A DNA stretch of 19,102 bases from a virus (IMGVR_UViG_3300024350_000008), one strand, 5' to 3'. Counted from the stretch's first letter, positions 1 through 12,110 are shown. Notes: a model not told the origin generated them from the sequence alone. A program made the numbers and translations.

Positions 1-558
1 CACAGCAAATGTTCCTTCATAACCTATCTGATCTTCTCTCTTTATATGAACAATGTTATACTTCTCTCTAAACTCATGTATAACATTCTCTACTATATAG
101 CTAGGAATATCTCTAGCCCAAGAGTATTTCTGTTCTGTCTCAGCACCACCATTAGTTTGCATCAAAAAAATAGGCTTATCAGAAACAAATTTTTTGCTAA
201 AGAAATCTATTTCTCTCTGTGTAAGAAATAGCTCTCCAACAGTCTTTGTTACTGGTAAACCGTACAAATTACACCATGTTTCAATAAGGTGTTCATCTTG
301 TTTAATGTGCTTTGCTTCCAAGTATGGATCGTGTGCAAATACCATAATCTCTTGATTCTCAATGTATTCCTTATAGAAATAAGCCTGTTGTCCAAAAGCG
401 TATGCTCTGTCAACATTCTTATTACCTAAGAATACATCTGGATAACCAGAGACAACAATAAGTTTACTATCAGGATACTTAGCCTTGATAGAAGCACAAA
501 TGGCGGTACCAGCAATCACCTTGCCAATACCGCCATTAATTTGGAATATTATATTCAT
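1..558 (-). CDS. Glycosyltransferase, GT-B fold, family 9 (heptosyltransferase-like); 3'-truncated at the window edge; absent from the supplied ORF track
   Basis: Manual translation from ATG at 558 is open for 186 codons to base 1: MNIIFQINGGIGKVIAGTAICASIKAKYPDSKLIVVSGYPDVFLGNKNVDRAY...HLIETWCNLYGL...KPIFLMQTNGG...SWARDIP...NIVHIKREDQ. The N-terminus follows the GT9 pattern (beta strand, GGxG, helix, K..YP..k.i.v). The later 'ifl.q..gg...r.w' stretch resembles the start of the second Rossmann domain. Confidence 0.8.
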   Translation of the reverse strand, partial: MNIIFQINGGIGKVIAGTAICASIKAKYPDSKLIVVSGYPDVFLGNKNVDRAYAFGQQAYFYKEYIENQEIMVFAHDPYLEAKHIKQDEHLIETWCNLYGLPVTKTVGELFLTQREIDFFSKKFVSDKPIFLMQTNGGAETEQKYSWARDIPSYIVENVIHEFREKYNIVHIKREDQIGYEGTFAV

Positions 559-563
559 GTATG

Positions 564-592
564 GTTGATTTTACCTCCAAAGGTAAACCAAC
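564..592 (-). promoter_or_regulatory. Stem-loop overlapping the -7 promoter element and ending 5 nt before the GT start codon
   Basis: Minus strand GTTGG-TTTACCT-ttgg-AGGTAAA-a-TCAAC: a perfect 7-bp inner stem (570-576/581-587), a 4-nt loop, and a 5-bp outer stem with one G-U pair after a 1-nt bulge. No U-tract follows. Confidence 0.55.
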
Positions 593-608
593 TATTTTGA
601 ATAACAAA
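578..608 (-). promoter_or_regulatory. Bacteroidota primary-sigma promoter for the glycosyltransferase gene
   Basis: Minus strand reads TTTG (608-605), a 19-nt spacer, then TACCTTTG (585-578). This is an exact match to the -33 TTTG / -7 TAnnTTTG consensus, 19 nt upstream of the ATG at 558. Confidence 0.75.
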
Positions 609-612
609 ATTT

Positions 613-834
613 TTATTCAGCTTTTAATTGAGCTAAACGAGCTTTATGCTCATCAATTTTAGCTTGCAATTCTGCTGCTTTTTGCTCAGGAGTTTTTGCT
701 GCCTCAGCTGCTGCTGCTGCTTCTTCCTCAGCTTTTCTTTGTGCAATAAATGCTTGCATTTTAGCTTTTCTTGCTAATTCAATTTCTAATTGAGTTGCTC
801 TTAATTCTGCCTCTAAGGCTGTTAAATCTGCCAT
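613..834 (-). CDS. Small Ala/Glu/Lys-rich coiled-coil hypothetical protein (73 aa)
   Basis: Co-oriented with its neighbours, A-rich leader (aaaaaaataaaatatt-ATG), heptad-like helical sequence. No recognisable family. Confidence 0.7.
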   Translation of the reverse strand: MADLTALEAELRATQLEIELARKAKMQAFIAQRKAEEEAAAAAEAAKTPEQKAAELQAKIDEHKARLAQLKAE

Positions 835-853
835 AATATTTATTTTTTTATGT

Positions 854-3826
854 TTAAACTAAATTGTTTCTTTTGATTATATCCTCTAAGGTAGCTATTT
901 TTTGTTCTTGAGCATCAAATTTAGCACTTAATTCTTGTAATGCTTTAGTAAGAACTGGAATTATTTTCTCTGGACTTAGAGACATTTCATCACTCTCTGC
1001 ACTTCTACCTACTGCTTCTGGTATAATTGGTTCAACCTCTTGAGCTATGAAGCCAATTTGTCTATTACATCCTCTAGTTTCTCTTGCTGTTTCATTCCAG
1101 TCAAAGCTAACAGGGTTCAGTTTTTTAACATCACACAACCCATAAGAAAGACCACAGATGTTTGTTTTTAAACGTATGTCAGAGCTATTTCTAACAATCA
1201 CACCATTTGTTCCAACACATAAAGCAACTGTTGTACCTACAAGATTACAAGCCCACAATTGGTTTGATGCAAAAGAACAAGCAATACTGTTAACAATACA
1301 ACATCCAAATACTCCTGAATAATTTCCAGAGGCTGTATTACCCATACCTCCTAGGATTACTGATTGGCTACAACAAACCGTGTTAAAATAACCACCTCCA
1401 ATAAATGAACCATCACCGTCTACTATATTACTACCACCTCCAACTACTGCAGAATAGTATCCACGAGCAGCATTCTGGTATCCATTACCAATAAATGATG
1501 AGTAACCACTAGCACTATTTGCACATCCACCAACAATAGTTGAGTATTGATTACTAGCAAAGTTAGAAGTACCGCCTCCAATAAATGTATAATATGCACT
1601 AAATGAGTTGTTGTAATTAGGGGCAATACAGTTACCAGTACCACCCACAATAGTTGCAGTATTTGAATACCCATCTATTATGTTATAACTTCCTCCACCT
1701 ATAAATGAACGCTTAGAACAAACTGTATTATTACACCCACCTACTATTGCTGAATAAGCTGGATGAATTGTATTACTACGGCCACCTACAATATTTGAAT
1801 TATTTGAGCAAACTGTATTATACTGTCCACCTCCTATAAATGAGTTTGAAGAACCTATACTTCCAGTGATGGTTGTAAAATCACAATAGAAAGAGGAGCA
1901 AGTCGTTGCAATTACAGTGGCAGGTATCCAGCCGTAGTAGTTACTCACAGTAACCTGTCCTGTCATTAGACCATAAGTGGCTGAGTTCATCGTTACTGTA
2001 GAACCATTTGGGAACATTGATGTAACATCTCCGTAAGAGCTATTTAATTGCAAATAGCCCATTCCATATAAATTGGAATTTGTTATATTATATGTACAAG
2101 ACACATATTGTGCTGCTGTGTTATTTGTACCTCCTACTATACTTGTAGCTAATCCTCCGTTTGTATTACATTGTCCACCACCTGCAAAGCTATAATCTCC
2201 ACATGCAGTATTACTAACTCCACATCTAAGTGTAGAATTACAACCTGCACCTGCAACCATAATTCCACCACCACCTGCAGTGTATGGAACTAACATTCCA
2301 TTTGCATCAGTACAAACAGCACAACCAGCAGTTGCTAAGTTAGCTGCAATTAATCTATTGGCTTTGAATGAACAAGCTACAGAGTTAGTTAATCCGCAGC
2401 CAAATACTGCACTATATGGAGCAGATGCTGTATTACCCCTACCACCTAATACTACTGAGTTATAACCACTTGCTGTATTTAATAAACCGTTAACAATTGC
2501 TGAATAAGATCCACACGCTTGGTTACCATCTCCTCCACCAACAGTTGAGTTTTGTCCATAAGTATAGTTATAAGTACCACCTGCAATAGATGAACAGTCT
2601 CCTCCATTCACATTAAACCTTCCTCCACCAATAAATGAATAATTTGAAGATATAGTATTATATTGTCCACTTACTATTGCTGAATGTATTCCACAAGCTG
2701 TATTATACATACCTGCTCCTATAAATGATTCACCAGCGCCAGCCGTATTAAACGCTCCTGTACCAACAAATCCTCCATAATATGCTACGTTGCAATAACC
2801 ACTACTAACAGTTGAATAACCAATACCAGCAATATTACACTCACCACCACCTATAAATGCGGAATATCCTCCTGATATTGTATTATATCTTCCGCCAACA
2901 ATAGCAGATGAGAGTGTATTACATGTTATGTTATTATTATATCCTGATAGTATGGTAGATGAACCAGCTGAGTTTGGATTCCAACAGTTGCTACTAATAG
3001 TATTACAGAATCCTGATAAAATACTTGAATTTTGTGAACAAACAGTATTAGTATTTCCTCCACCAATAAAAGCATTTGTGGTATACATGCCGCTTATGGT
3101 GTTATAGTAACCTCCAGAAATAGTGTTTGTATTATAATCACTACTAATAGTATTACAGTTACCTCCACCAATAAAGTGAGCTTGGGCTGTTCCATATGTT
3201 CCAGCAGTAATAGTATTATAGTTACCTCCAGAAATTGTATGAGAAGAACCACAAATTATATTATAAGATCCTCCACCAATAAAGCTCCAACCCTCATAGC
3301 CTGATAATGTTAAGATTTGATTACACTCTCCTCCAGCTATAGTAGAAAATCTAGTTTGATTTATATTAAATTTTCCACCTACAATTGCTGAGTTACATGT
3401 ACCATTACTATTACTGATTATATTTAGATATCCACCACCAACAAATGAGTGACACCCACCAGCTGTATTACATTGACCACCTCCAGCAAAACTATAATCA
3501 CCTGGTGCTGTATTATTAACACCACATCTAATAGAAGAACAAGTACCAGAACCAGCAGTAAAGATTCCTATTCCACTAGTTCCACTTGGGCCAGGGATGC
3601 CAGATAACGTGATGGTCCAATTAGTTATAACACCTGCGTCTCCACAAAATTGACAAGGTTTAAGAACTAGTTCTCCAGTTCCACTATTATATGAAACAAT
3701 TTCACCCCATATGTAAGAATTAACACCATCATACAACTGCACAAAGTCGTTTGCATTGAATGACAATCCTGTTTGGGTAGTAAGGGTTATATTGTCATAA
3801 CATCCACAAGGAGAGCAATTAGGCAT
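854..3826 (-). CDS. Tail fibre / receptor-binding protein with about 35 S-F/A-I-G/V-G-G-x-x-N repeats and a C-terminal intramolecular chaperone (peptidase S74)
   Basis: 14-16 aa repeats such as SFIGGGxxNT resemble trimeric beta-roll (YadA-head-like) repeats. The C-terminus has SDIRLK...LNPVSFDW...IGFIAQEVE...IIPVLTKALQEL plus a coiled coil, the S74 signature. Confidence 0.88.
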   Translation of the reverse strand: MPNCSPCGCYDNITLTTQTGLSFNANDFVQLYDGVNSYIWGEIVSYNSGTGELVLKPCQFCGDAGVITNWTITLSGIPGPSGTSGIGIFTAGSGTCSSIRCGVNNTAPGDYSFAGGGQCNTAGGCHSFVGGGYLNIISNSNGTCNSAIVGGKFNINQTRFSTIAGGECNQILTLSGYEGWSFIGGGSYNIICGSSHTISGGNYNTITAGTYGTAQAHFIGGGNCNTISSDYNTNTISGGYYNTISGMYTTNAFIGGGNTNTVCSQNSSILSGFCNTISSNCWNPNSAGSSTILSGYNNNITCNTLSSAIVGGRYNTISGGYSAFIGGGECNIAGIGYSTVSSGYCNVAYYGGFVGTGAFNTAGAGESFIGAGMYNTACGIHSAIVSGQYNTISSNYSFIGGGRFNVNGGDCSSIAGGTYNYTYGQNSTVGGGDGNQACGSYSAIVNGLLNTASGYNSVVLGGRGNTASAPYSAVFGCGLTNSVACSFKANRLIAANLATAGCAVCTDANGMLVPYTAGGGGIMVAGAGCNSTLRCGVSNTACGDYSFAGGGQCNTNGGLATSIVGGTNNTAAQYVSCTYNITNSNLYGMGYLQLNSSYGDVTSMFPNGSTVTMNSATYGLMTGQVTVSNYYGWIPATVIATTCSSFYCDFTTITGSIGSSNSFIGGGQYNTVCSNNSNIVGGRSNTIHPAYSAIVGGCNNTVCSKRSFIGGGSYNIIDGYSNTATIVGGTGNCIAPNYNNSFSAYYTFIGGGTSNFASNQYSTIVGGCANSASGYSSFIGNGYQNAARGYYSAVVGGGSNIVDGDGSFIGGGYFNTVCCSQSVILGGMGNTASGNYSGVFGCCIVNSIACSFASNQLWACNLVGTTVALCVGTNGVIVRNSSDIRLKTNICGLSYGLCDVKKLNPVSFDWNETARETRGCNRQIGFIAQEVEPIIPEAVGRSAESDEMSLSPEKIIPVLTKALQELSAKFDAQEQKIATLEDIIKRNNLV
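857..1183 (-). other. Peptidase S74 / intramolecular chaperone domain, autocleavage site S-D-I-R-L-K at 1183-1166
   Basis: The S-D-x-R-L-K Ser/Lys dyad, GFIAQE and terminal coiled coil are all present. Confidence 0.85.
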
Positions 3827-3891
3827 GTTGATATATTAAGGTTGTTTTGTAAATTTAATTATATTGGTTGAGTTGTTGTAGTGGTTGTGGT

Positions 3892-3933
3892 ACATGTACC
3901 AATTTGTGTCAACATATACCAATTTGTGTCAAC
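3892..3933. repeat. 20-bp tandem duplication at the 3' end of the 905-aa gene
   Basis: acatgtaccaatttgtgtcaac (3892-3913) versus acatataccaatttgtgtcaac (3912-3933), 21/22 identical. The 17-bp cores at 3897-3913 and 3917-3933 are identical. Confidence 0.95.
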
Positions 3934-6626
3934 GTTGTACCATTATCAGCATAAGGATTTCCTACAGAATCACAGTTACAGAATTGACCAGTTGGGTCAC
4001 CACTGCTTAATGTAATTGTTTGAGGATCACCAGTATAACAGTTGTAATAATGAATCACATCACCTCCTTCAGGAATAGTTGCTCCATTATACTCCCAATT
4101 TCTACAGTTGGCACATACAAAAGCGGTAGTAGTAGTGGTTGTTGTACATTCTACCAAAGGTAGTGTGATTGCACTTGAGCTTGTACCAACATACACTGAA
4201 GACGCACCACTTGTTCCACTAGTACCGCTTGATCCACTTGTACCTGAACTTCCATCCACACCAGATGTTCCGTTGATTCCTGAGGTTCCAGATGAACCAG
4301 ATGTGCCATCAACTCCAGAAGTACCTGATGTTCCATCCACACCACTTGTACCTGAAGTTCCACTAGTACCATCAACACCTGATGTTCCTCCTGTTCCATC
4401 AGTACCTGATGTTCCACTTGTTCCACTAGAGCCTGCTGTGCCTGAACTACCAGAGCTTCCAGAAGACCCAGACGATCCACTAGTTCCTGCAGTGCCAGAG
4501 GTTCCGCCACTACCGTCAGTACCACTTGTACCAGCACTGCCACTAGATCCAGAAGATCCAGATGTTCCACTGGTTCCCCCACTACCATCTGTTCCTGAGC
4601 TACCTGCTGTACCGCTTGTGCCTGAAGATCCAGCTGTACCACTGCTACCAGATGATCCAGAGCTGCCAGAACTTCCACTCGTACCTGTAGTGCCACTCGT
4701 ACCACTGGTTCCTCCTGAACCATCAGTGCCGCTAGTGCCTGATGTACCTGATGTAGCGCTTGTTCCACTACTACCAGATGTACCTGTGGTGCCAGACGTA
4801 CCAGATGTACCATTAGATCCATTAGTACCAGATGTACCTGAAGTTCCAGATGTAGCACTTGTACCAGATGTTCCAGTGGTTCCTGAGGTGCCTGAGGTGC
4901 CTGTAGTTCCAGACGTGCCATCTATTCCACTTGTACCAGATGTGCCACCAGTACCTGATGTGCCTGTTGTACCACTACTACCACTTGAACCAGAAGTTCC
5001 TGTAGTACCAGACGTACCTGCTGTAGCAGACGTACCACTTGTTCCAGAAGTACCATCTGTACCGTTACCACCTGTAGCACCATCTAGGTTCACTTCCCAA
5101 GATGAATATGTACCAGAGCCAGTTTGTCCAGTCACTTGGAAGCTTAAGCTACCAGTGTTTGGATCATATGATGTAACGACTGCTTCATTGTGTTTGAAAG
5201 CATCGCCTGAATAAGTTATAATGATTGATTGCCCCAGAGTGTATGCCAGTCCTGTACCCACTGTAATAGTGCCTGTACCAGGAGGGGCTTGTATTGTATA
5301 TGTGGTGGAGGATGTTGTAGCAAATCTATCACCACTCAAACCTGAAGATCCTGATGTACCTGTAGTACCACTTGTTCCAGAAGTGCCTGATGTAGCACTC
5401 GTACCACTGGTGCCGCTTGTTGCACTTGTACCAGATGTACCGCTTGTACCTCCAGATCCGTCTGTTCCACTGGTTCCTGAAGTGCCAGAAGTACCACTTA
5501 TGCCAGTGGTTCCTGATGTGCCACTTGTTCCTGCAGTGCCACTAGTACCAGACGTACCTGCTGTACCATCTGTACCACTGGTTCCAGCTGTACCACTGGT
5601 TCCTGATGTACCTGTTGTACCAGCAGTTCCACTTGTGCCTGACGTACCTGATGAACCTCCTGTACCATCAGTGGCAGATGTACCACTTGTACCACTACTG
5701 CCAGATGTTCCTGTAGTTCCGCTTGTTCCACTTGTACCTGTAGTACCTGAAGATCCAGAAGTCGCACTCGTACCACTTGTACCTGAAGTTCCTCCTGTTC
5801 CATCAGTTCCAGAAGATCCTGATGTACCAGAGGTGGCAGAAGTACCTGACGTACCACTGGTACCACCTGTACCATCTGTTGCTGACGTACCTGATGTACC
5901 ACTTGATCCACTTGTTGCAGACGTACCACTTGTAGCACTTGTACCGCTTGTACCTGTGGTTCCACTAGATCCTGAGGTAGCTGATGTACCAGACGTGCCT
6001 GATGTGCCGCCAGTACCATTTGTACCGCTTGTGCCTGATGTTCCACTGGTTGCACTCGTACCACTCGTACCAGTGGTACCAGAAGTACCTGTTGTGCCGC
6101 TTGTACCAGAACTACCAGCTATGCCACTAGTTCCACTCGTAGCGCTTGTACCACTGGTCCCACTGGTCCCACTGGTTCCTGAGCTACCGCTTGTACCAAA
6201 CGTTCCATCTGCACCTGAAGTACCACTGGTCCCACTGGTTCCAGAAGTTCCAGAAGTTCCAGAGCTTCCTGCCAAACCATTGGCAAAAGCTGCTTCTATT
6301 TTCTCAATGACTGTCTGAACATTATCGTTGGTGTTAATTTTTGTATAGATCAAATTGGGTCCTTCATAGAACACACAAGTGGCGTTCAATATAATTGGAC
6401 AAGGGTTAGCAGCACATATGACTGGGCTGGTTGTAAAAGAATCATTTTGGCTATGATTGCCAAAGAGTTTAGATATGAACGGTACTTTGTCTGAATCATT
6501 AACTGGTTCAGGATCAGGCACATAGGTATATATCGGTGTATTATCTACACAGTCAGGAGTTGACTCACCTGAAGTACCAGATGTGCCACTACCCCCATAT
6601 TGGAGTATATTAGGAAGTACGTTCAT
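3909..6626 (-). CDS. Collagen-like Gly-Thr-Ser repeat tail fibre/whisker protein (905 aa)
   Basis: Two G-X-Y tracts (aa about 120-432 and 516-807) are separated by an 83-aa beta domain. It also has a Cys-containing N-terminal domain, a poly-Thr linker and a Cys-rich C-terminal domain. It lies between tail-type genes. Confidence 0.75.
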   Translation of the reverse strand: MNVLPNILQYGGSGTSGTSGESTPDCVDNTPIYTYVPDPEPVNDSDKVPFISKLFGNHSQNDSFTTSPVICAANPCPIILNATCVFYEGPNLIYTKINTNDNVQTVIEKIEAAFANGLAGSSGTSGTSGTSGTSGTSGADGTFGTSGSSGTSGTSGTSGTSATSGTSGIAGSSGTSGTTGTSGTTGTSGTSATSGTSGTSGTNGTGGTSGTSGTSATSGSSGTTGTSGTSATSGTSATSGSSGTSGTSATDGTGGTSGTSGTSATSGTSGSSGTDGTGGTSGTSGTSATSGSSGTTGTSGTSGTTGTSGSSGTSGTSATDGTGGSSGTSGTSGTAGTTGTSGTSGTAGTSGTDGTAGTSGTSGTAGTSGTSGTTGISGTSGTSGTSGTDGSGGTSGTSGTSATSGTSGTSATSGTSGTSGTTGTSGSSGLSGDRFATTSSTTYTIQAPPGTGTITVGTGLAYTLGQSIIITYSGDAFKHNEAVVTSYDPNTGSLSFQVTGQTGSGTYSSWEVNLDGATGGNGTDGTSGTSGTSATAGTSGTTGTSGSSGSSGTTGTSGTGGTSGTSGIDGTSGTTGTSGTSGTTGTSGTSATSGTSGTSGTNGSNGTSGTSGTTGTSGSSGTSATSGTSGTSGTDGSGGTSGTSGTTGTSGSSGSSGSSGSSGTAGSSGTSGTAGSSGTDGSGGTSGTSGSSGSSGSAGTSGTDGSGGTSGTAGTSGSSGSSGSSGSSGTAGSSGTSGTSGTDGTGGTSGVDGTSGTSGTSGVDGTSGTSGVDGTSGSSGTSGINGTSGVDGSSGTSGSSGTSGTSGASSVYVGTSSSAITLPLVECTTTTTTTAFVCANCRNWEYNGATIPEGGDVIHYYNCYTGDPQTITLSSGDPTGQFCNCDSVGNPYADNGTTLTQIGIC
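4206..5081 (-). repeat. Gly-X-Y (GTS/GSS/GTD) coding repeat tract 2, about 97 triplets
   Basis: 9-bp period degenerate repeat with Gly at almost every third residue and occasional Ala substitutions. Confidence 0.9.
5331..6269 (-). repeat. Gly-X-Y (GTS/GTT/ATS) coding repeat tract 1, about 104 triplets
   Basis: 9-bp period degenerate repeat. Some runs are near-exact, e.g. ccactggtc x3 near 6151-6179. Confidence 0.9.
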
Positions 6627-7097: not shown

Positions 7098-10000
7098 CTA
7101 TCGTATACCATAGTTCTTTTGCATCTTTATACCCAGGTCTTTGGCAGCATCTGGGTAGAACATTGGGAGGTAACCAACCATCTGATTGGTGAATGGGAAG
7201 GTACGCATCCAATACTTGATAACATATGTATCTTTTACAGTTTTCTCATCACCTTCTATAAGAGCCCAGTTTTCTACAAAGAAGTTACCCAGTCCCTTTC
7301 TGAAGTTCTCAATCAGGGAGATGGCTGGGAATATGTTTCCAGATACAGTTTTGAGGATGGCTGTAGGATCGTAGAAATAGCTAATCTCATCCTTAAACTT
7401 ATCAGCCATCTTTACAAGGAACCTATATTGGTTCTTGACAGAAGGATCTTCCTCATCATCTGGAAGGTTCTTTATGCCTGCCACAAGGATGAGTAGGCTT
7501 ACGTAGAATATTACGTCTATTATCTGAGACCTAATGTTTCCTCTGACAAGATCTATAAACTGTGCCTCTGTCATATCTAGTTCCTTGCCTGTGTCCTTCT
7601 TATATTCATCCCTCTTCTTTTCATAAAGCTGTCTCATGAATTCAACCCCTCTCTCATTAGCCACTAGAGATCCATGGAGATTACCTAACATTCTGAATAG
7701 GTCTTCCTTGATAATCCTAAACACCATTCTTGTTCTTCCCCATTCGTAGGCATCAGAGGCTGAATTGTATTTAACATTACCAAATCTTACATCAATCAGA
7801 CGAGGAATCCAGTTTTTAAACACCATGAATGACTTACCATATACACTCATGTTTATCATTCTGAGATCATCTTCTGACAAGTTACCAAGCGCAGCTTTGC
7901 TCAGACTTTGTACGTTCCTTCTGAGATCAACAACACTTTGTGACTGTTGCTCAACACCAGGTATAACTAGTTTATTATCAACGATTTGTGAAACTTTTAA
8001 TACACCCTTCTCTTCAACAAGTTTCTTAACATCCTCCTCAAATTGATTCTCTAGGCTTTTTCTTTGCTCCACCCCACCAGCATATATGTTTGCATATTTA
8101 GGCTGAGACCTTAGGTATTCTCTAGCATTCACCACTTCTCCATCTTGAACAATAGTGTTCTTGAGGAAGGAAAGGAAGTTGGCAGTTTGTACATTCCAGT
8201 CAGACTTTCTCATAAGGAACATCAGCCCATCTTGTAAACTCTCCTGTGTCAATGTGCTGAGAGAAAGCTTCTTTGCAAACTCCCTGTTATAGTTTTCTGT
8301 CAGAGGGAGGAAGTATTCAAGAGCAGCTATTATTTTCTTTTGGTTAGGAACATTGAGCTTCTGTGTGAATATCTCAAGCTCACTAGCCAGATAATCACCC
8401 TTGGTGAAATACTTACCAGAGTTGATGATAGACTGAGCATTACCACCAAAGAAGTTGGAAGATGCTGACAGGAGGTTTAGTCCAAGAGCACTCAGCTGGA
8501 ATGTGCTGTTCAGATTGTCAATAACCTTATTAACACTCACTTGTCTTTCAGACAGACCCTCTGGGAATACGTTTATTCCAAGCTTCTTGTTCAATGTCTC
8601 ACCCCAATTACCAAGCTTTCCAAGCAGCTGATCAAATGTCTCACTTGTAACATATCTCTGACCATATATGATGGATTTCATCATATCATCGTAGAGCTTG
8701 GAGTTTTCATTATTGTCTGGAGTGTATTGGAGAACATCATCTTTGTATTCTGTTTTTCCAAATATAGAGGTGGCAATTGCCTTCTTGTTCCTCTCAACAC
8801 CAGACACAAGTCTCAACTGATCCTCCATCTGTTTCAAATACTTATATCTAATGGCTGCCTCATTATAGAAAGCCATTGTCCTGAACAGGTCTTCGCTCAC
8901 TTCTCCTTCTATAGGAGATGTGAAATACTTAGGGATGACATTGATGGGTTTGCCTGACAATGGATCAGTTTGACCATATCCTATATCTCCTTCATCAATA
9001 GATATGCTTCTGAAGAACTGTTCACCAAGTCTAACGTTTCCTCCCATTACAAGTTTCTCTGTAAGGGTTTTTCTTACAAATGGCAGGAACACCCTAGCGC
9101 TGTCTCTTCTTATATATCCAAGATCTCTGTATTCTTCGTTCTTGTCTCTAATGTAATTATAGAAATCAAGAGCAGCTTTGTTCTTTGGATCGTTCAGCTC
9201 TTTCCATTCTTTAGACACCCATTTCTCTGCTGCATGTTTCTTTACAAGATCATAAAGCAACCATCCTGGAGATTCTGTAGTGGTTGTGTTGTATAAAGCT
9301 CTAGCCTGGTTTATTTCATATTTAAGCTCATTTGGAAGATCTGCAGGATTCTTTGTCTCCTCATATCTCTGCATTCTTGCAGCTTCTTCTTGGTTCTCAA
9401 ACACCCTAGGTCTGTCAATAATTCTTTGTATCTCTTCCTTGAGCTTCTCAGAAAGGTCTTTGTTGTATTCAGCAACATTGATGTTAGCTCTCACCCAATC
9501 ATAATCCTTAGCCTCTATCTTCTTCTTAAGGGTGGAGAAGAACTCAGGATTGAACTCATCAATAAGCTCGTTCTTTCCTTTCTTCTTGATAATATCAAAA
9601 TAGCTTTTTGCTGTAAGTCCTTTAGATCTTGCCCATTTATCGTAGGCTTCCTTTATAGACAGCAGTCTTTTGTTCTCGTTGATTGCCTCCATTCCAGAAT
9701 AAGCAAACGCTTTGTTTGCCTTTTTGTAAAGGATTTGTATAGCTCTTGTCTGTAATGTTGATGTGGTTCCAAAGAGTTTTGTAAAACCTTTTATTATTTT
9801 CTCTGGAGACAACAAGGAATCTATTCCTTCAGACTTAGCAACTATTTCAGAAGCAAAGTTGTTTATAACACCATCCTCACCTTCTAGCTCATTCATAAGA
9901 GATCTGGCAGCATCTGCTGTCTTTCTTAAGTCTTCATTAAGCTTTGCATCCTCTTCTGACAGTTCTTCTGGGAACAGAAATCTCAAATCCACATCAAGAT

Positions 10001-12110
10001 TGGTGTAGGTTCTCAAAGACTCCTGTGCTGTAATAAGATCTGCAGCAAACTCACTAACCTGTTGGTCTGTGAAAGACTTAGGATCTTTTCCTTCAAACTC
10101 ATTCTTATATCTCTGTAGGAGCTTCTTTATCTGTATGTTTAATATCTTAGCTTGTCTAAGTAGAGGTCTCACCTCTCTCTTCATCTGAAGATGTCTGATT
10201 GCCTGGAACAGTGAGTTGAGCTGTTCTCTTTTGCTCAATGTTTCAGAAGGCAACACTCTTCTCTCAGAAAACTTTTTGTATACAGCATTGAGTTTTTCAA
10301 GAATGCTGTCAAGCTTTTTGCTACCTGTTTTCTCATCAATCAAAGCAAGAGGTAATAAATAATCTTCATCAATGTTGTTCACCACAACATCTCCAATCCT
10401 CACCTTCTCAAGCATTGGAAGAACACCAGACCTTGCATCCCCTCCTGTGTAAATAGCCTGTATAGGAATCATCCTAGTCTGTTCAAAGTTTCCAGGCTTA
10501 ACACCATACACGCTCTTTAGGATGAGCTTATACTGGTCCATTTGTATTCTCCAGCTATTGACATTATACCAAGGAATCTCTTGGAATTGATCTGTCTTAA
10601 TAGCCATGAACTTCCAGTCAAGAACATATGTATTTCCTTCTGGTGTAATAGCAAGGAAGTCCACTGTACCAGCTATAGATCTGTTAGGATCGTAGATGGT
10701 CACCTCACTAGCAAATCTCACCTTACCACCACCCTGAGCATTGATCACTCTAATTCTTTCTTGTAGATTGTCCTTCAGAACACTAAACATAGACCTGTCT
10801 GAAGCAGGCACCTTGGCTAATGCTACATCCTCATCCAAAGGAACATCTCTTACAAATCCGTTCTCATCTATGAACATGCCAAATGCAAGTTCTAGATATT
10901 TATGGCCAGCTGTACCCTTCTCTTTCTTAAGTTCATCAAGTGCCTTTTGGTAGTCACTCTTTGTTAAATCCTTCTGGTCACGCTGTCTGGAATACCAATC
11001 TTTAGAAAGATCTGTCACCCTTCTTCTGATTTGCTTTCCATCTATGAAGTATCTCTCAACTTCCTCACCATCCTCTATAACAGTTTTTTTCTCTATCTTA
11101 GAATCCACCTCTTTTATTTTATTAAAGATGGTGGTCTGTGGATCATTTGCCTGCTGAAGGAAAGCTAAATCTATATCAGCTCTGATGTCATCCGCTGTAC
11201 CTATTTTCTTTCCAGAGATGATGTCCATAGCTGCCTGGTCAAATCCACTCTTTGTGAATAGTCCTTTGAGCCATTCCATAATCTTTCCCCACCAACCAAG
11301 TGCTTTCTCAAGGTTCTGAGGATTGTCCACAGCTCCCTCACGGTTCTTAATAACCACCTCAGCCAACACCTTTGCTATAGCCTCGTCTTTAAGTTTGAGG
11401 ACATCTGGCTTACCATCCTTTGTCTGATAGAGAGGATCAGACGCATAGTCAGCAAACACTTGCTTTAATATCCTATAGTTGTTTATCTCACTCAACAGCT
11501 TCTTGTAAAGGGCTGGGTTTGTTTGCTTTATAATCTCAACAGCAAAGTGCATTGCTTCCTCAGGAAGAGCTTCAGCCTCTTTACCCTCTACCACCTGTAT
11601 AAGCTTCTGCATAATAAGAGCTACACCATTTGCATTCTGCTTCTCACCATTTACAACAATCTGTTGCATAGGTTTGATGTTAACACCAATACGATTGAGG
11701 AAGTCTTTTATCATGGCCACAGTGGCAGGAGAAGCTTTTGACATATCTAAGTCTTCCTTCTGTAACATAGCATTCTTAGGATCTGTCTTTTGTTCTTCAG
11801 GAAGTCTATTGTATTCGTGTTCTACATAATTAGGATTGACATCCAGAGTTATTGTAACTGGATCATAATCAGAAACGTTTGTAACATATCCAGTTACAGC
11901 ATTATTAAATGACTTTCTAACTTGTGCCAGCTTTCTTTTAGCTATATTCAAGGCTTGAGTTCTACTCAAAGCTTTTGTCCCAGCAGCATCCACTTTACCA
12001 TTTATTCTTATGGTGTCATCAGATATACGGGAATAAGTGTACCTACCTTCAAACATTTCGTTGAAAGCTTTGTCCAATATTGCCTTTTTAACATCTAGTC
12101 TACAAGCCAT
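7098..12110 (-). CDS. Large probable virion ejection (cargo) protein with a degenerate zincin-like domain, a PD-(D/E)xK nuclease domain and C-terminal hydrophobic helices (1670 aa)
   Basis: LPEEAMHF...KDEAIAK...WWGKIMEWLKGLF (zincin/MPTase-like); KGTAGHKYLE...AGTVDF...YVLDWKF...QMDQY (PD-(D/E)xK); VIFYVSLLILVAGI (hydrophobic). It is adjacent to and coupled with the virion RNAP gene, as for crAss-like cargo proteins. Confidence 0.72.
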   Translation of the reverse strand: MACRLDVKKAILDKAFNEMFEGRYTYSRISDDTIRINGKVDAAGTKALSRTQALNIAKRKLAQVRKSFNNAVTGYVTNVSDYDPVTITLDVNPNYVEHEYNRLPEEQKTDPKNAMLQKEDLDMSKASPATVAMIKDFLNRIGVNIKPMQQIVVNGEKQNANGVALIMQKLIQVVEGKEAEALPEEAMHFAVEIIKQTNPALYKKLLSEINNYRILKQVFADYASDPLYQTKDGKPDVLKLKDEAIAKVLAEVVIKNREGAVDNPQNLEKALGWWGKIMEWLKGLFTKSGFDQAAMDIISGKKIGTADDIRADIDLAFLQQANDPQTTIFNKIKEVDSKIEKKTVIEDGEEVERYFIDGKQIRRRVTDLSKDWYSRQRDQKDLTKSDYQKALDELKKEKGTAGHKYLELAFGMFIDENGFVRDVPLDEDVALAKVPASDRSMFSVLKDNLQERIRVINAQGGGKVRFASEVTIYDPNRSIAGTVDFLAITPEGNTYVLDWKFMAIKTDQFQEIPWYNVNSWRIQMDQYKLILKSVYGVKPGNFEQTRMIPIQAIYTGGDARSGVLPMLEKVRIGDVVVNNIDEDYLLPLALIDEKTGSKKLDSILEKLNAVYKKFSERRVLPSETLSKREQLNSLFQAIRHLQMKREVRPLLRQAKILNIQIKKLLQRYKNEFEGKDPKSFTDQQVSEFAADLITAQESLRTYTNLDVDLRFLFPEELSEEDAKLNEDLRKTADAARSLMNELEGEDGVINNFASEIVAKSEGIDSLLSPEKIIKGFTKLFGTTSTLQTRAIQILYKKANKAFAYSGMEAINENKRLLSIKEAYDKWARSKGLTAKSYFDIIKKKGKNELIDEFNPEFFSTLKKKIEAKDYDWVRANINVAEYNKDLSEKLKEEIQRIIDRPRVFENQEEAARMQRYEETKNPADLPNELKYEINQARALYNTTTTESPGWLLYDLVKKHAAEKWVSKEWKELNDPKNKAALDFYNYIRDKNEEYRDLGYIRRDSARVFLPFVRKTLTEKLVMGGNVRLGEQFFRSISIDEGDIGYGQTDPLSGKPINVIPKYFTSPIEGEVSEDLFRTMAFYNEAAIRYKYLKQMEDQLRLVSGVERNKKAIATSIFGKTEYKDDVLQYTPDNNENSKLYDDMMKSIIYGQRYVTSETFDQLLGKLGNWGETLNKKLGINVFPEGLSERQVSVNKVIDNLNSTFQLSALGLNLLSASSNFFGGNAQSIINSGKYFTKGDYLASELEIFTQKLNVPNQKKIIAALEYFLPLTENYNREFAKKLSLSTLTQESLQDGLMFLMRKSDWNVQTANFLSFLKNTIVQDGEVVNAREYLRSQPKYANIYAGGVEQRKSLENQFEEDVKKLVEEKGVLKVSQIVDNKLVIPGVEQQSQSVVDLRRNVQSLSKAALGNLSEDDLRMINMSVYGKSFMVFKNWIPRLIDVRFGNVKYNSASDAYEWGRTRMVFRIIKEDLFRMLGNLHGSLVANERGVEFMRQLYEKKRDEYKKDTGKELDMTEAQFIDLVRGNIRSQIIDVIFYVSLLILVAGIKNLPDDEEDPSVKNQYRFLVKMADKFKDEISYFYDPTAILKTVSGNIFPAISLIENFRKGLGNFFVENWALIEGDEKTVKDTYVIKYWMRTFPFTNQMVGYLPMFYPDAAKDLGIKMQKNYGIR
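10400..11050 (-). other. PD-(D/E)xK (RecB/Cas4-like fold) nuclease domain inside the 1670-aa protein; boundaries approximate
   Basis: GTxxH..E helix (10902-10916), catalytic Asp in GTVDF (10659-10661), D-W-K (10611-10619) and a downstream QxxxY helix (WRIQMDQY). Confidence 0.8.

Follow-up and report, generated by a model that had tools for sequence, protein, structure and literature searches.

A putative protein-glycosylation module follows the tail-fiber genes of a river phage related to the crAss-like phages

Phage-encoded glycosyltransferases reportedly decorate the virion proteins of mycobacteriophages Che8, Corndog and Myrna in the cytoplasm, in work attributed to Freeman and colleagues; the targets are said to be capsid and tail-tube proteins, and the enzymes to come from other glycosyltransferase families than those considered here. 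In the exosporium protein BclA of Bacillus and in the cuticle collagen of Riftia, Thr O-glycans on G-X-Y repeats replace hydroxyproline as the stabilizer of the helix. In Escherichia coli the BAHT enzymes TibC and Aah (TIGR04414; PDB 4RAP/4RB4; PMC4358343) are cytoplasmic and use an ADP-heptose-type donor, and their genes adjoin those of the Ser/Thr-rich repeat surface proteins TibA and AIDA-I. The known BAHT substrates are classical β-helical autotransporters; neither a collagen helix nor a trimeric roll of the YadA type is among them. Within TibC, D110 is catalytic (the D110A mutant is inactive) and C339, C342, C358 and C370 are the iron-finger cysteines (PMC4358343).

The window that we have analyzed is a stretch of 19,102 nt (IMGVR_UViG_3300024350_000008) from a river phage that is a relative of the crAss-like phages. 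It contains two tail-fiber genes, encoding P0001 and P0002, with which the late structural operon closes; a module of about 12 genes follows. Only the first gene of this module, GT288, extends into the window (Table 1). There is no terminator-like site between the fiber genes and GT288, and P0001 and GT288 lie 3.3 kb apart in a single operon. The preliminary description placed a glycosyltransferase directly after the fiber genes; it does follow them, but with a 73-residue ORF in between that is conserved in some relatives. The window's own record is 78 kb in length, and the BAHT gene falls past its end. This gene was assigned through the near-identical contig L003 rather than the window's own contig. 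The 13,190 nt that L003 (110 kb) shares with the window's genome are 99.985% identical, and L003 runs past the end of that genome and carries the BAHT gene.

Table 1. Positions of the fiber genes, their domains and the adjoining genes within the window
Feature	Position	Strand	Details
P0001, collagen-like fiber, 905 aa	3909..6626	-	anchor, block 1, small globular module, block 2, poly-Thr, Cys-rich C-terminal domain
P0001 N-terminal anchor domain, aa 1-116	6279..6626	-	motif CPIILNATCVFYEG
P0001 collagen-like block 1, aa 117-434	5325..6278	-	106 triplets, mainly G-T-S
P0001 collagen-like block 2, aa 516-809	4200..5081	-	98 triplets
P0001 sole poly-Thr run, aa 828-834	4125..4145	-	T x 7, precedes Cys-rich C-terminal domain
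P0002, Cys-rich tail fiber, 990 aa	854..3826	-	
P0002 β-roll repeat region, aa 90-850	1277..3559	-	left-handed YadA-head-like roll
P0002 Peptidase_S74 chaperone domain, aa 882-939	1010..1183	-	motif SSDIRLKTNI
Coiled-coil ORF, 73 aa	613..834	-	Ala/Glu/Lys-rich, between fiber gene and GT288
GT288 (GT9-fold protein), N-terminal 186/288 aa in window	1..558	-	full gene L002:2324-3190:-, ends 308 nt left of window

Gly accounts for 25% of P0001, Thr for 23.5% and Ser for 22.7%. Its two collagen-like blocks together comprise 204 consecutive, in-phase triplets (612 residues), in which the first position is Gly in 190 and Ala in 14, X is Thr in 154 and Y is Ser in 144. The long G-X-Y register matches the Pfam Collagen model (PF01391) with E = 4.5e-63, and the repeat pattern is far above chance. 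The protein of about 600 residues of Gly/Thr/Ser triplets in the preliminary description is thus present, but the several poly-Thr linkers ascribed to it come down to one run of seven Thr. Pro is absent from all 204 triplets, and neither Hyp nor another known collagen stabilizer is evident in them. P0001 resembles BclA and the Riftia collagen in its collagen-like G-X-Y repeats with Thr. In the GPT repeat of BclA, however, X is Pro and Y is Thr, whereas the repeat of P0001 is G-T-S, with no Pro and with 14 substitutions of Ala for Gly, and the enzymes differ too. The anchor domain is common to the first fiber gene of related phages, irrespective of the type of repeat that lies downstream.

P0002 is a fiber of a different kind. 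It has a small N-terminal β module, two blocks of repeats of about 15 residues (S-x-I-G-G-G-x-x-N-T-x-S), a Peptidase_S74 intramolecular chaperone (51.8 bits against a Pfam cut-off of 22) and a C-terminal coiled coil. A predicted model of residues 90-520 (pLDDT 82) has the regular short strands of a left-handed parallel β-roll. Its best matches among solved structures are the heads of UspA1, BpaC, BoaA and AtaA, with UspA1 at the top (36% identity, E = 1e-5). Earlier mention of Ser/Thr-rich scaffold fibers in the plural therefore suits P0001, but not the YadA-head-like roll of P0002.

To the left of the window, where the preliminary description had recommended looking for more sugar enzymes, there are indeed BAHT, heptose-pathway-like, methyltransferase and PAPS/sulfotransferase genes. 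P0281 lies about 3.6 kb away on L003, and comprises 1150 residues with SAM methyltransferase, GT4 and BAHT domains. Residues 810-1137 score 259.7 bits against the equivalog TIGR04414 (cut-off 200, E = 4e-77), spanning positions 26-372 of the 374 in the model, and this C-terminal domain matches TibC (4RAP) with E = 1e-45. The sequence SKSLGD aligns with GTLGD110 of TibC, so that the catalytic Asp is kept, and CHGC...WCPVHKGTDRQWEC aligns with CYGC...WCPRHKNTDRQFEC of TibC, keeping all four iron-finger cysteines (TibC Cys339/342/358/370). Judged by its sequence, the last domain of P0281 is a bona fide protein O-heptosyltransferase domain of the Aah/TibC type, and is predicted to be cytoplasmic with an ADP-heptose-type donor.

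As in the E. coli systems, the enzyme gene adjoins that of a Ser/Thr-rich repeat protein. In every relative examined the BAHT gene adjoins the fiber module, and in the unrelated Microcystis phage Mel-JY01 it adjoins a Ser-rich 'structural protein'. Unlike TibC and Aah, P0281 is phage-encoded, its BAHT domain is fused behind methyltransferase and GT4 domains, and its neighbors are tail fibers, one a collagen-like helix and the other a trimeric roll of the YadA type, rather than classical type Va autotransporters. The phage cluster also brings genes of its own for sugar nucleotides, methylation and sulfation. A literature search on phage BAHT enzymes returned no paper.

Beside the BAHT gene the best matches are to HldE kinase, HldE adenylyltransferase and HldD epimerase, together with a cupin isomerase. 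All three heptose-gene matches fall under their NCBIfam equivalog cut-offs, scoring 125 for rfaE domain I (cut-off 345), 99 for rfaE domain II (181.5) and 179.5 for heptose_epim (274.6). GmhA (SIS_2) was not found in four near-complete relatives, in a search that detected the controls, and the cupin isomerase is present in the cluster in its place. The sugar could therefore differ from heptose. The cluster also encodes an FkbM methyltransferase, an APS kinase, a small nucleotidyltransferase, a DUF2061 protein and a NoeE-like sulfotransferase. The sulfotransferase gene follows GT288; its product of 273 residues scores 63.2 bits against PF13469 (cut-off 27) and 46.3 bits against PF00685 (cut-off 22), and matches NoeE with E = 7e-9, under the equivalog cut-off. 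A related cassette occurs in the Prochlorococcus phage P-SSM2, where homologues of GT288, the kinase, adenylyltransferase, cupin and epimerase (23-46% identity) are likewise placed between tail-fiber-like genes. P-SSM2 differs in adding GmhA and a carbamoyltransferase, and a search of the phage collection gave no BAHT match in it.

GT288 was said to be GT9-like, and at the level of the fold this holds. The predicted structure (AlphaFold, pLDDT 97) has a GT-B fold, and its best structural matches are the GT9 proteins 3TOV, WaaF and WaaC (3TOV, 1PSW, 2H1F; E = 1e-12 to 1e-9), with Swiss-Prot WaaF at E = 1e-12 and TibC at 1e-7. GT288 differs from WaaC, WaaF and WaaQ (CAZy GT9, PF01075) in its length of 288 residues, against about 320-350, and in having no Pfam match; the gathering score of PF01075 is not reached, and RfaQ is matched at E = 0.016 only. 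One fused member of the family does score 22.9 bits against PF01075 (cut-off 22). The C-terminal D-S-x-x-x-H donor-site motif is shared with the Waa enzymes. In GT288 it reads DSFGQHAAAAL, corresponding to D-S-G-x-M-H-x-A-A-A, and MDSFGQHAAAAL aligns with NDSGLMHVAAAL of WaaF; D207, S208 and H212 are invariant or almost so in the family.

The opposite holds for the GT9 catalytic Asp (WaaC D13, TibC D110). The family signature is GG(I/V)GK, and Lys13 of GT288 occupies the position of that Asp, aligning with the Asp of LGD in the BAHT domain. At least 90% of the 78 family members have Lys here, and P-SSM2 has Arg. This places the chemistry of GT288, and even its activity, in doubt. Some members of the family are fused to FkbM methyltransferase or GT25 domains. 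The sulfation module and this Lys-type branch of GT9 are the contribution of this window.

The partners of GT288 are fibers and a sulfotransferase, not core-LPS genes as for the Waa enzymes. In 64 of 68 viral loci a sulfotransferase is no more than 3.5 kb away from it. The 6 kb upstream contain a β-roll ORF in 30/41 viral loci and in 20/29 from MAGs, whereas downstream the figures are 4/41 and 2/29, and the association of GT288, sulfotransferase and an upstream YadA-head-like fiber extends over phages and Bacteroidota MAG contigs. In Pelagibacter phage HTVC111P the GT288 homologue comes directly after an S74 tail fiber. Homologues also adjoin fiber-like proteins in one genome of Ancylomarina and in L134, an unclassified MAG with a locus similar to those of Parcubacteria-labelled MAGs. 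We infer that GT288 and the sulfotransferase make up an optional pair accompanying β-roll fibers.

The association with collagen-like repeats follows the BAHT gene. Among genomes at least 90% complete, which are related and not phylogenetically independent, a collagen-like fiber of at least 39 triplets is present in 11/11 of those with BAHT and 0/4 of those without. The co-occurrence of the GTS-repeat fiber with the GT9-like gene that had been anticipated fails, since three relatives of 100% completeness have 79 to 866 collagen triplets without GT288; conversely, four complete genomes with GT288 lack a large collagen-like fiber. GT288 and BAHT are each found without the other, and thus need not share one substrate.

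With fiber genes standing beside some 12 sugar, methyl and sulfate genes, a relative of the adhesin heptosyltransferases included, the phage probably sugar-coats its own fibers by means of a cytoplasmic protein-glycosylation module; we put the probability at roughly 55%. Glycosylation of virion fibers, as the preliminary description had it, remains the best reading, now backed by the BAHT and cluster genes, while its pairing of GTS fiber with GT288 is not supported. The phage enzymes would make or boost ADP-heptose, and in the cytoplasm the BAHT domain would add heptose to Ser/Thr of the fibers, either ahead of their assembly or in the course of it. The glycan might then be extended by the GT4 domain and GT288, and decorated by the methyltransferases and the sulfotransferase, with PAPS supplied by the phage APS kinase. 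P0001 appears to be the acceptor best backed by co-occurrence, and P0002 that best backed by analogy with AIDA-I and TibA. The benefit is likely to be stabilization of a proline-free triple helix, or shielding of a protease or immune type, or adhesion. Such a scheme would share with the mycobacteriophages the use of phage-encoded glycosyltransferases on the phage's own virion proteins, reportedly shown there and proposed here from the genes; it differs in its BAHT/GT9 and GT4 enzymes, its fiber targets and the added heptose pathway and sulfation. General O-glycosylation in Bacteroidota, earlier offered as support, is periplasmic and so has no bearing on virions, which are assembled in the cytoplasm.

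The cluster might instead remodel an envelope glycan of the host, be it the LPS/LOS core, the capsule or some other, against superinfection or the sticking of progeny to debris, an alternative already raised in the preliminary description. Host-glycan-modifying genes of temperate phages, such as those for seroconversion, often adjoin tailspike genes as well, so adjacency alone is ambiguous. Among solved structures and those of Swiss-Prot entries, GT288 comes closest to the LPS heptosyltransferases WaaF, WaaC and WaaQ, the cluster encodes a small predicted membrane protein (DUF2061), and the homologous cassette of P-SSM2 has been read as LPS biosynthesis that alters the host cell surface (PMC1079782). 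Yet the best-identified transferase of the cluster is an equivalog-level protein O-heptosyltransferase and no LPS enzyme, and the catalytic Asp of the LPS heptosyltransferases is missing from GT288. MAGs labelled Parcubacteria, Taylorbacteria, Saccharibacteria and Chloroflexota, which are lineages without LPS, encode GT288 homologues, and the homologues of Chitinophagaceae adjoin secreted repeat proteins, not core-LPS genes. Among the cluster genes scanned there is no flippase, polymerase, ligase, lipid-carrier transferase or other lipid-carrier enzyme. The genes end a late structural operon, and no integrase is seen in the available part of the phage genome. We consider remodeling of the host envelope unlikely.

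In the exact pairing first suggested, GT288 itself would attach O-glycans to the (Gly-Thr-Ser)n blocks of P0001. This draws on their common operon and on a collagen-like ORF within 10 kb of GT288 in 16/47 viral loci. Several relatives moreover fuse collagen and β-roll parts in one giant fiber, so that a fiber-linked enzyme could meet both. Collagen is nearby in only 2/38 MAG loci, however, and with the complete genomes that have one partner without the other and the change of the catalytic Asp to Lys, we think this pairing very unlikely. It is similarly hard to credit that the module glycosylates host proteins (adhesins or T9SS cargo), changing the host surface during infection. BAHT enzymes do modify bacterial surface adhesins in nature (PMC4358343), and in Flavipsychrobacter chromosomes GT288 homologues adjoin T9SS-sorted NHL-repeat proteins. 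In phages, however, the enzymes consistently adjoin the phage's own fiber genes, the chromosomal loci too have β-roll proteins resembling the phage fiber directly upstream, and there is no evident benefit to a phage that lyses its host. Hypermodification of phage DNA, or another non-protein target, is the most improbable of all; T-even DNA is glycosylated by GT-B enzymes, but the genes stand at the structural/lysis junction, away from those for replication, and the targets of BAHT, FkbM and NoeE-like enzymes are proteins or sugars.

Returning to glycosylation of the phage's own fibers, a more specific form of it is possible and is put forward tentatively. The tail fibers might carry sulfated, O-methylated heptose glycans, with GT288 and the sulfotransferase acting as a two-enzyme module for YadA-like β-roll fibers and adhesins, in several unrelated phage lineages and in Bacteroidota chromosomes. 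If true, this would be the first sulfated glycoprotein of a phage virion and would explain the purpose of phage sulfotransferases, and GT288, of the Lys-type branch of GT9, would form with the sulfotransferase a module unrecognized before.

The window corresponds to positions 2633-21734 of a virus record of 78 kb (estimated completeness 67%), on which genes for terminase, portal and major head protein are present. The closest terminases are those of a Leptolyngbya phage (39%), of Cellulophaga phages phi17:2 and phi4:1, and of crAss-like phages from Bacteroides, Flavobacterium and Azobacteroides. All genes of the window are on the minus strand. The sole PHROG match of the 1670-aa protein is a weak one to an exonuclease (E = 4e-5, residues 396-539). 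River metagenomes and metatranscriptomes contain the same DNA, and metatranscriptome contigs from four samples span the whole stretch, joining GT288 (the GT9-fold protein), the 73-aa ORF and the 3′ end of the fibre gene; contigs from RNA libraries can be carried-over DNA, and this coverage is not taken as proof of expression. Over positions 861-1001, which take in the 3′ end of the P0002 coding sequence and the spacer, the river metatranscriptome assemblies include two variant contigs with six differences in 141 nt, which suggests microdiversity among strains at the C-terminus of the fibre.

Features of the window and of the region to its left (unprefixed positions are those of the window; L-numbers are fetched contigs)
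Feature	Position	Strand	Context
Giant ORF, virion-RNA-polymerase-like		-	first in transcription order
1670-aa protein	7098-12110	-	second
P0005, 131 aa	6635-7030	-	third
P0001, collagen-like fibre, 905 aa	3909-6626	-	fourth
P0002, beta-roll fibre, 990 aa	854-3826	-	fifth
Coiled-coil ORF, 73 aa	613-834	-	between P0002 and GT288
GT288, first 186 codons	1-558	-	last; cut by window edge
GT288, full gene, 288 aa	L002:2324-3190	-	
Sulfotransferase, NoeE-like	left of window		same record, after GT288
Short APS kinase	left of window		same record
Nucleotidyltransferase, 132 aa	left of window		same record
DUF2061 protein	left of window		same record
ADP-heptose-6-epimerase-like gene			same record; convergent, cut by contig end
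FkbM methyltransferase	L003		past record end
P0281, 1150 aa	L003, ~3.6-7.0 kb left of window base 1		after FkbM
Cupin, 128 aa, mannose-6-P or lyxose-isomerase-like	L003:17634-18020	+	in heptose cassette
Adenylyltransferase, HldE-domain-II-like	L003		after cupin
Kinase, HldE-domain-I-like	L003		after adenylyltransferase; lysis genes next

The preliminary description had noted a fibre rich in Gly, Thr and Ser, and this is borne out in P0001, which has 204 consecutive triplets, all in phase, divided between two blocks (residues 117-434 and 516-809). The X position is threonine in 154 of them and the Y position serine in 144; alanine replaces glycine 14 times, and proline is absent. The protein matches Pfam Collagen with E = 4.5e-63, and its PHROG matches are collagen-like tail fibres. 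The poly-Thr linkers described earlier reduce to a single Thr7 run, upstream of the Cys-rich C-terminal domain. P0002 is a fibre of another kind, Cys-rich and built from SxIGGGxxNTxS repeats of about 15 residues with a Peptidase_S74 chaperone domain. In the predicted model (pLDDT 82) the repeat region forms a beta-roll like that of the YadA head, and the best match is the UspA1 head, with 36% identity. There is a weak resemblance (26% over 68 residues, E = 7e-4) between the globular module that separates the collagen blocks of P0001 (5082-5324) and the N-terminal module of P0002 (3560-3826). P0005 and the N-terminal anchor of P0001 (6279-6626) have a Cys-containing motif in common, C..NA.CV.Y.G...N..D..Q..EKI. 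The two are 40% identical over 35 residues (E = 4e-6), and P0005 and P0001 may share a docking site on the tail.

A GT9-like transferase had been placed directly after the fibres. The 73-aa ORF comes first, then GT288, whose model (pLDDT 97) has a GT-B fold with GT9 enzymes as the best structural matches and TibC lower in the list. The full protein has no match in Pfam, and the truncated fragment in the window has none in Pfam or PHROGs. One search returned 2763 family members, another 697 clusters at 50% identity, and some members are fused to an FkbM methyltransferase or a GT25 domain. The motif at the donor site is conserved. Thus the fold stands, but the catalytic Asp of GT9 enzymes is replaced by a lysine that is nearly invariant in the family; the sequence GGIGK of GT288 aligns with LGD of the BAHT (Aah/TibC-type protein O-heptosyltransferase) domain discussed below. 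We read GT288 as a predicted glycan-building enzyme with altered chemistry and not a standard heptosyltransferase.

Further sugar enzymes were looked for to the left of the window, and genes of BAHT, heptose-pathway-like, FkbM and sulfotransferase/APS kinase type are found there. Five genes follow GT288 in the same record. Contig L003 (110 kb) is 99.985% identical to the record over 13,190 shared bases and extends beyond its end, and through it we located P0281, whose gene lies outside the window's own contig. In this enzyme a SAM methyltransferase and a GT4 domain precede a C-terminal BAHT domain. The latter reaches 259.7 bits against the Aah/TibC equivalog model (cut-off 200) and matches TibC with E = 1e-45, keeping Asp110 and all four iron-binding cysteines, which are essential in TibC (PMC4358343). 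Judged from sequence, no other single finding argues as strongly as the BAHT domain that protein would be the target of glycosylation by this cluster. Every one of the sugar-pathway matches falls under its cut-off. GmhA (SIS_2) was not found in four near-complete relatives, and the cupin may stand in, as a non-orthologous enzyme, at the first heptose-pathway step.

The co-occurrence analysis drew on three sets of loci: 72 viral ones that carry a GT288 homologue, 35 viral ones that carry the anchor domain of P0001, and 64 taken from bacterial genomes and MAGs. A sulfotransferase follows GT288 in 64 of 68 viral loci. In the 6 kb upstream of GT288 a beta-roll ORF is present at 30/41 of the viral loci and 20/29 of those from MAGs, against 4/41 and 2/29 downstream. 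A collagen-like ORF of at least 30 triplets is nearby at just 16/47 of the viral loci and 2/38 of the MAG loci. The expected co-occurrence of the GTS-repeat fibre with the GT9-like gene fails in three 100%-complete relatives, which have 79-866 collagen triplets, no GT288 and no match in a beta-roll search that was positive in four of five GT288 genomes used as control. All three carry a P0281 homologue. Collagen-like fibres show no positive link to GT288, being present in 8/12 genomes with it versus 3/3 without. Eight of the 12 GT288 genomes (at least 90% complete) have a BAHT domain and four lack it; these four have no large collagen-like fibre, the maximum being 27 triplets in a small protein. 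Over the 15 near-complete genomes the collagen-like fibre is present in 11/11 with BAHT versus 0/4 without. As these genomes are related to one another, their counts are indicative and not statistics. The exact pairing of GT288 with P0001 is therefore very probably wrong, and GT288 tracks beta-roll fibres and the sulfotransferase.

Homologues of GT288 occur in similar settings elsewhere. In Pelagibacter phage HTVC111P the gene lies directly after a YadA-like S74 tail fibre, and in Ancylomarina after a 1495-aa S74 fibre. Cyanophage P-SSM2 (AY939844.2, 227282-244025) has homologues of GT288, the cupin, the adenylyltransferase, the kinase and the epimerase between two tail-fibre-like genes. Flavipsychrobacter chromosomes encode beta-roll repeat and T9SS-sorted NHL proteins, then a GT288 homologue and then an FkbM methyltransferase. 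In an unclassified MAG (L134:6220-10906) the sulfotransferase-GT288 pair adjoins a 670-aa protein with a weak match to the Peptidase_G2 chaperone domain, and the pair is also present in MAGs labelled Parcubacteria, Taylorbacteria and Saccharibacteria (L131, L136, L137, L141). One complete phage (L036) has GT288 with neither sulfotransferase nor BAHT, after a 2550-aa Ser/Thr-rich S74 fibre of another repeat type. From these contexts, therefore, the constant partner of GT288 is a fibre or adhesin gene, mostly of beta-roll type. We rejected synteny within one phage clade as a sufficient account, since Pelagibacter podophages, a cyanomyovirus, one Ancylomarina genome and the chromosomes of Chitinophagaceae all show this polarity.

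Some of these loci have other features. The Flavipsychrobacter MAG modules (L090:4449-9664, L117:4812-8933) encode a Cys-rich beta-roll protein that lacks an evident signal peptide, together with a T9SS-sorted NHL-repeat protein and a GT288 homologue; L090 also has the FkbM methyltransferase, and genes for an IrrE-HTH protein and a serine recombinase lie close by. The pair in L134 also adjoins the housekeeping genes Kup and BipA. In L036 a 289-aa Laminin_G_3 protein with a concanavalin-like lectin fold (8122-8991, plus strand) lies between fibre and GT288.

The BAHT gene abuts the fibre module in every relative examined. In a set of 50,697 deposited phage records, only three huge uncultured phages and Microcystis phage Mel-JY01 have the domain; in Mel-JY01 it ends a 1226-aa 'FkbM methyltransferase' right after a Ser-rich structural protein. 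Relatives also encode proteins of 127-175 aa that contain long stretches of poly-Thr or Thr/Pro (L161:15746-16129, L148:14894-15421, L174:18296-18751), after the fibre gene and beside the BAHT gene, which could be further mucin-like acceptors. To our knowledge, protein heptosylation by BAHT enzymes is established only for adhesins of enteric pathogens, and phage virion glycosylation has experimental support only in a few mycobacteriophages. A literature search found no paper on phage BAHT enzymes, and none on phage fibre glycosylation, crAss-like sulfotransferases or phage PAPS genes that describes such a system. The function of phage sulfotransferases has explicitly been called unclear (PMC10580990).

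The most likely reading, to which we give a probability of about 0.55, is a predicted cytoplasmic system for fibre glycosylation. The BAHT domain would attach the first, O-linked heptose to the fibres, the GT4 domain together with GT288 would lengthen the glycan, and methyl and sulfate groups would decorate it. The favoured candidate acceptors are P0001, on the ground of co-occurrence, and P0002, on those of analogy and association with GT288. The original proposal is thus partly supported: its idea of fibre glycosylation is probably right, but its pairing of enzyme and fibre is not.

The main rival is that these enzymes remodel glycans of the host envelope. The name 'LPS gene cluster' for the P-SSM2 genes is in keeping with this, but part of that cluster may be a virion-glycosylation module rather than one for host LPS, and the BAHT domain speaks for protein as the target; we regard the rival as rather unlikely. 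The general O-glycosylation system of Bacteroidota was rejected as the fibre modifier because it acts in the periplasm.

If fibre glycosylation is correct, a phage BAHT enzyme with its own sugar supply beside the fibres would mean that environmental phages widely coat their receptor-binding fibres with sugar. This would bear on host range, stability, shielding from antibodies and proteases, and the prediction of fibre structure, and would explain the stability of proline-free collagen-like fibres. The tight pairing of GT288 with a sulfotransferase provides a concrete, testable context for phage sulfotransferases. The shared cassette suggests that the long-standing 'LPS genes' of P-SSM2 may need re-reading. 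To the theme of BAHT and fibres the window adds a sulfation module and a Lys-type GT9 branch tied to beta-roll fibres.
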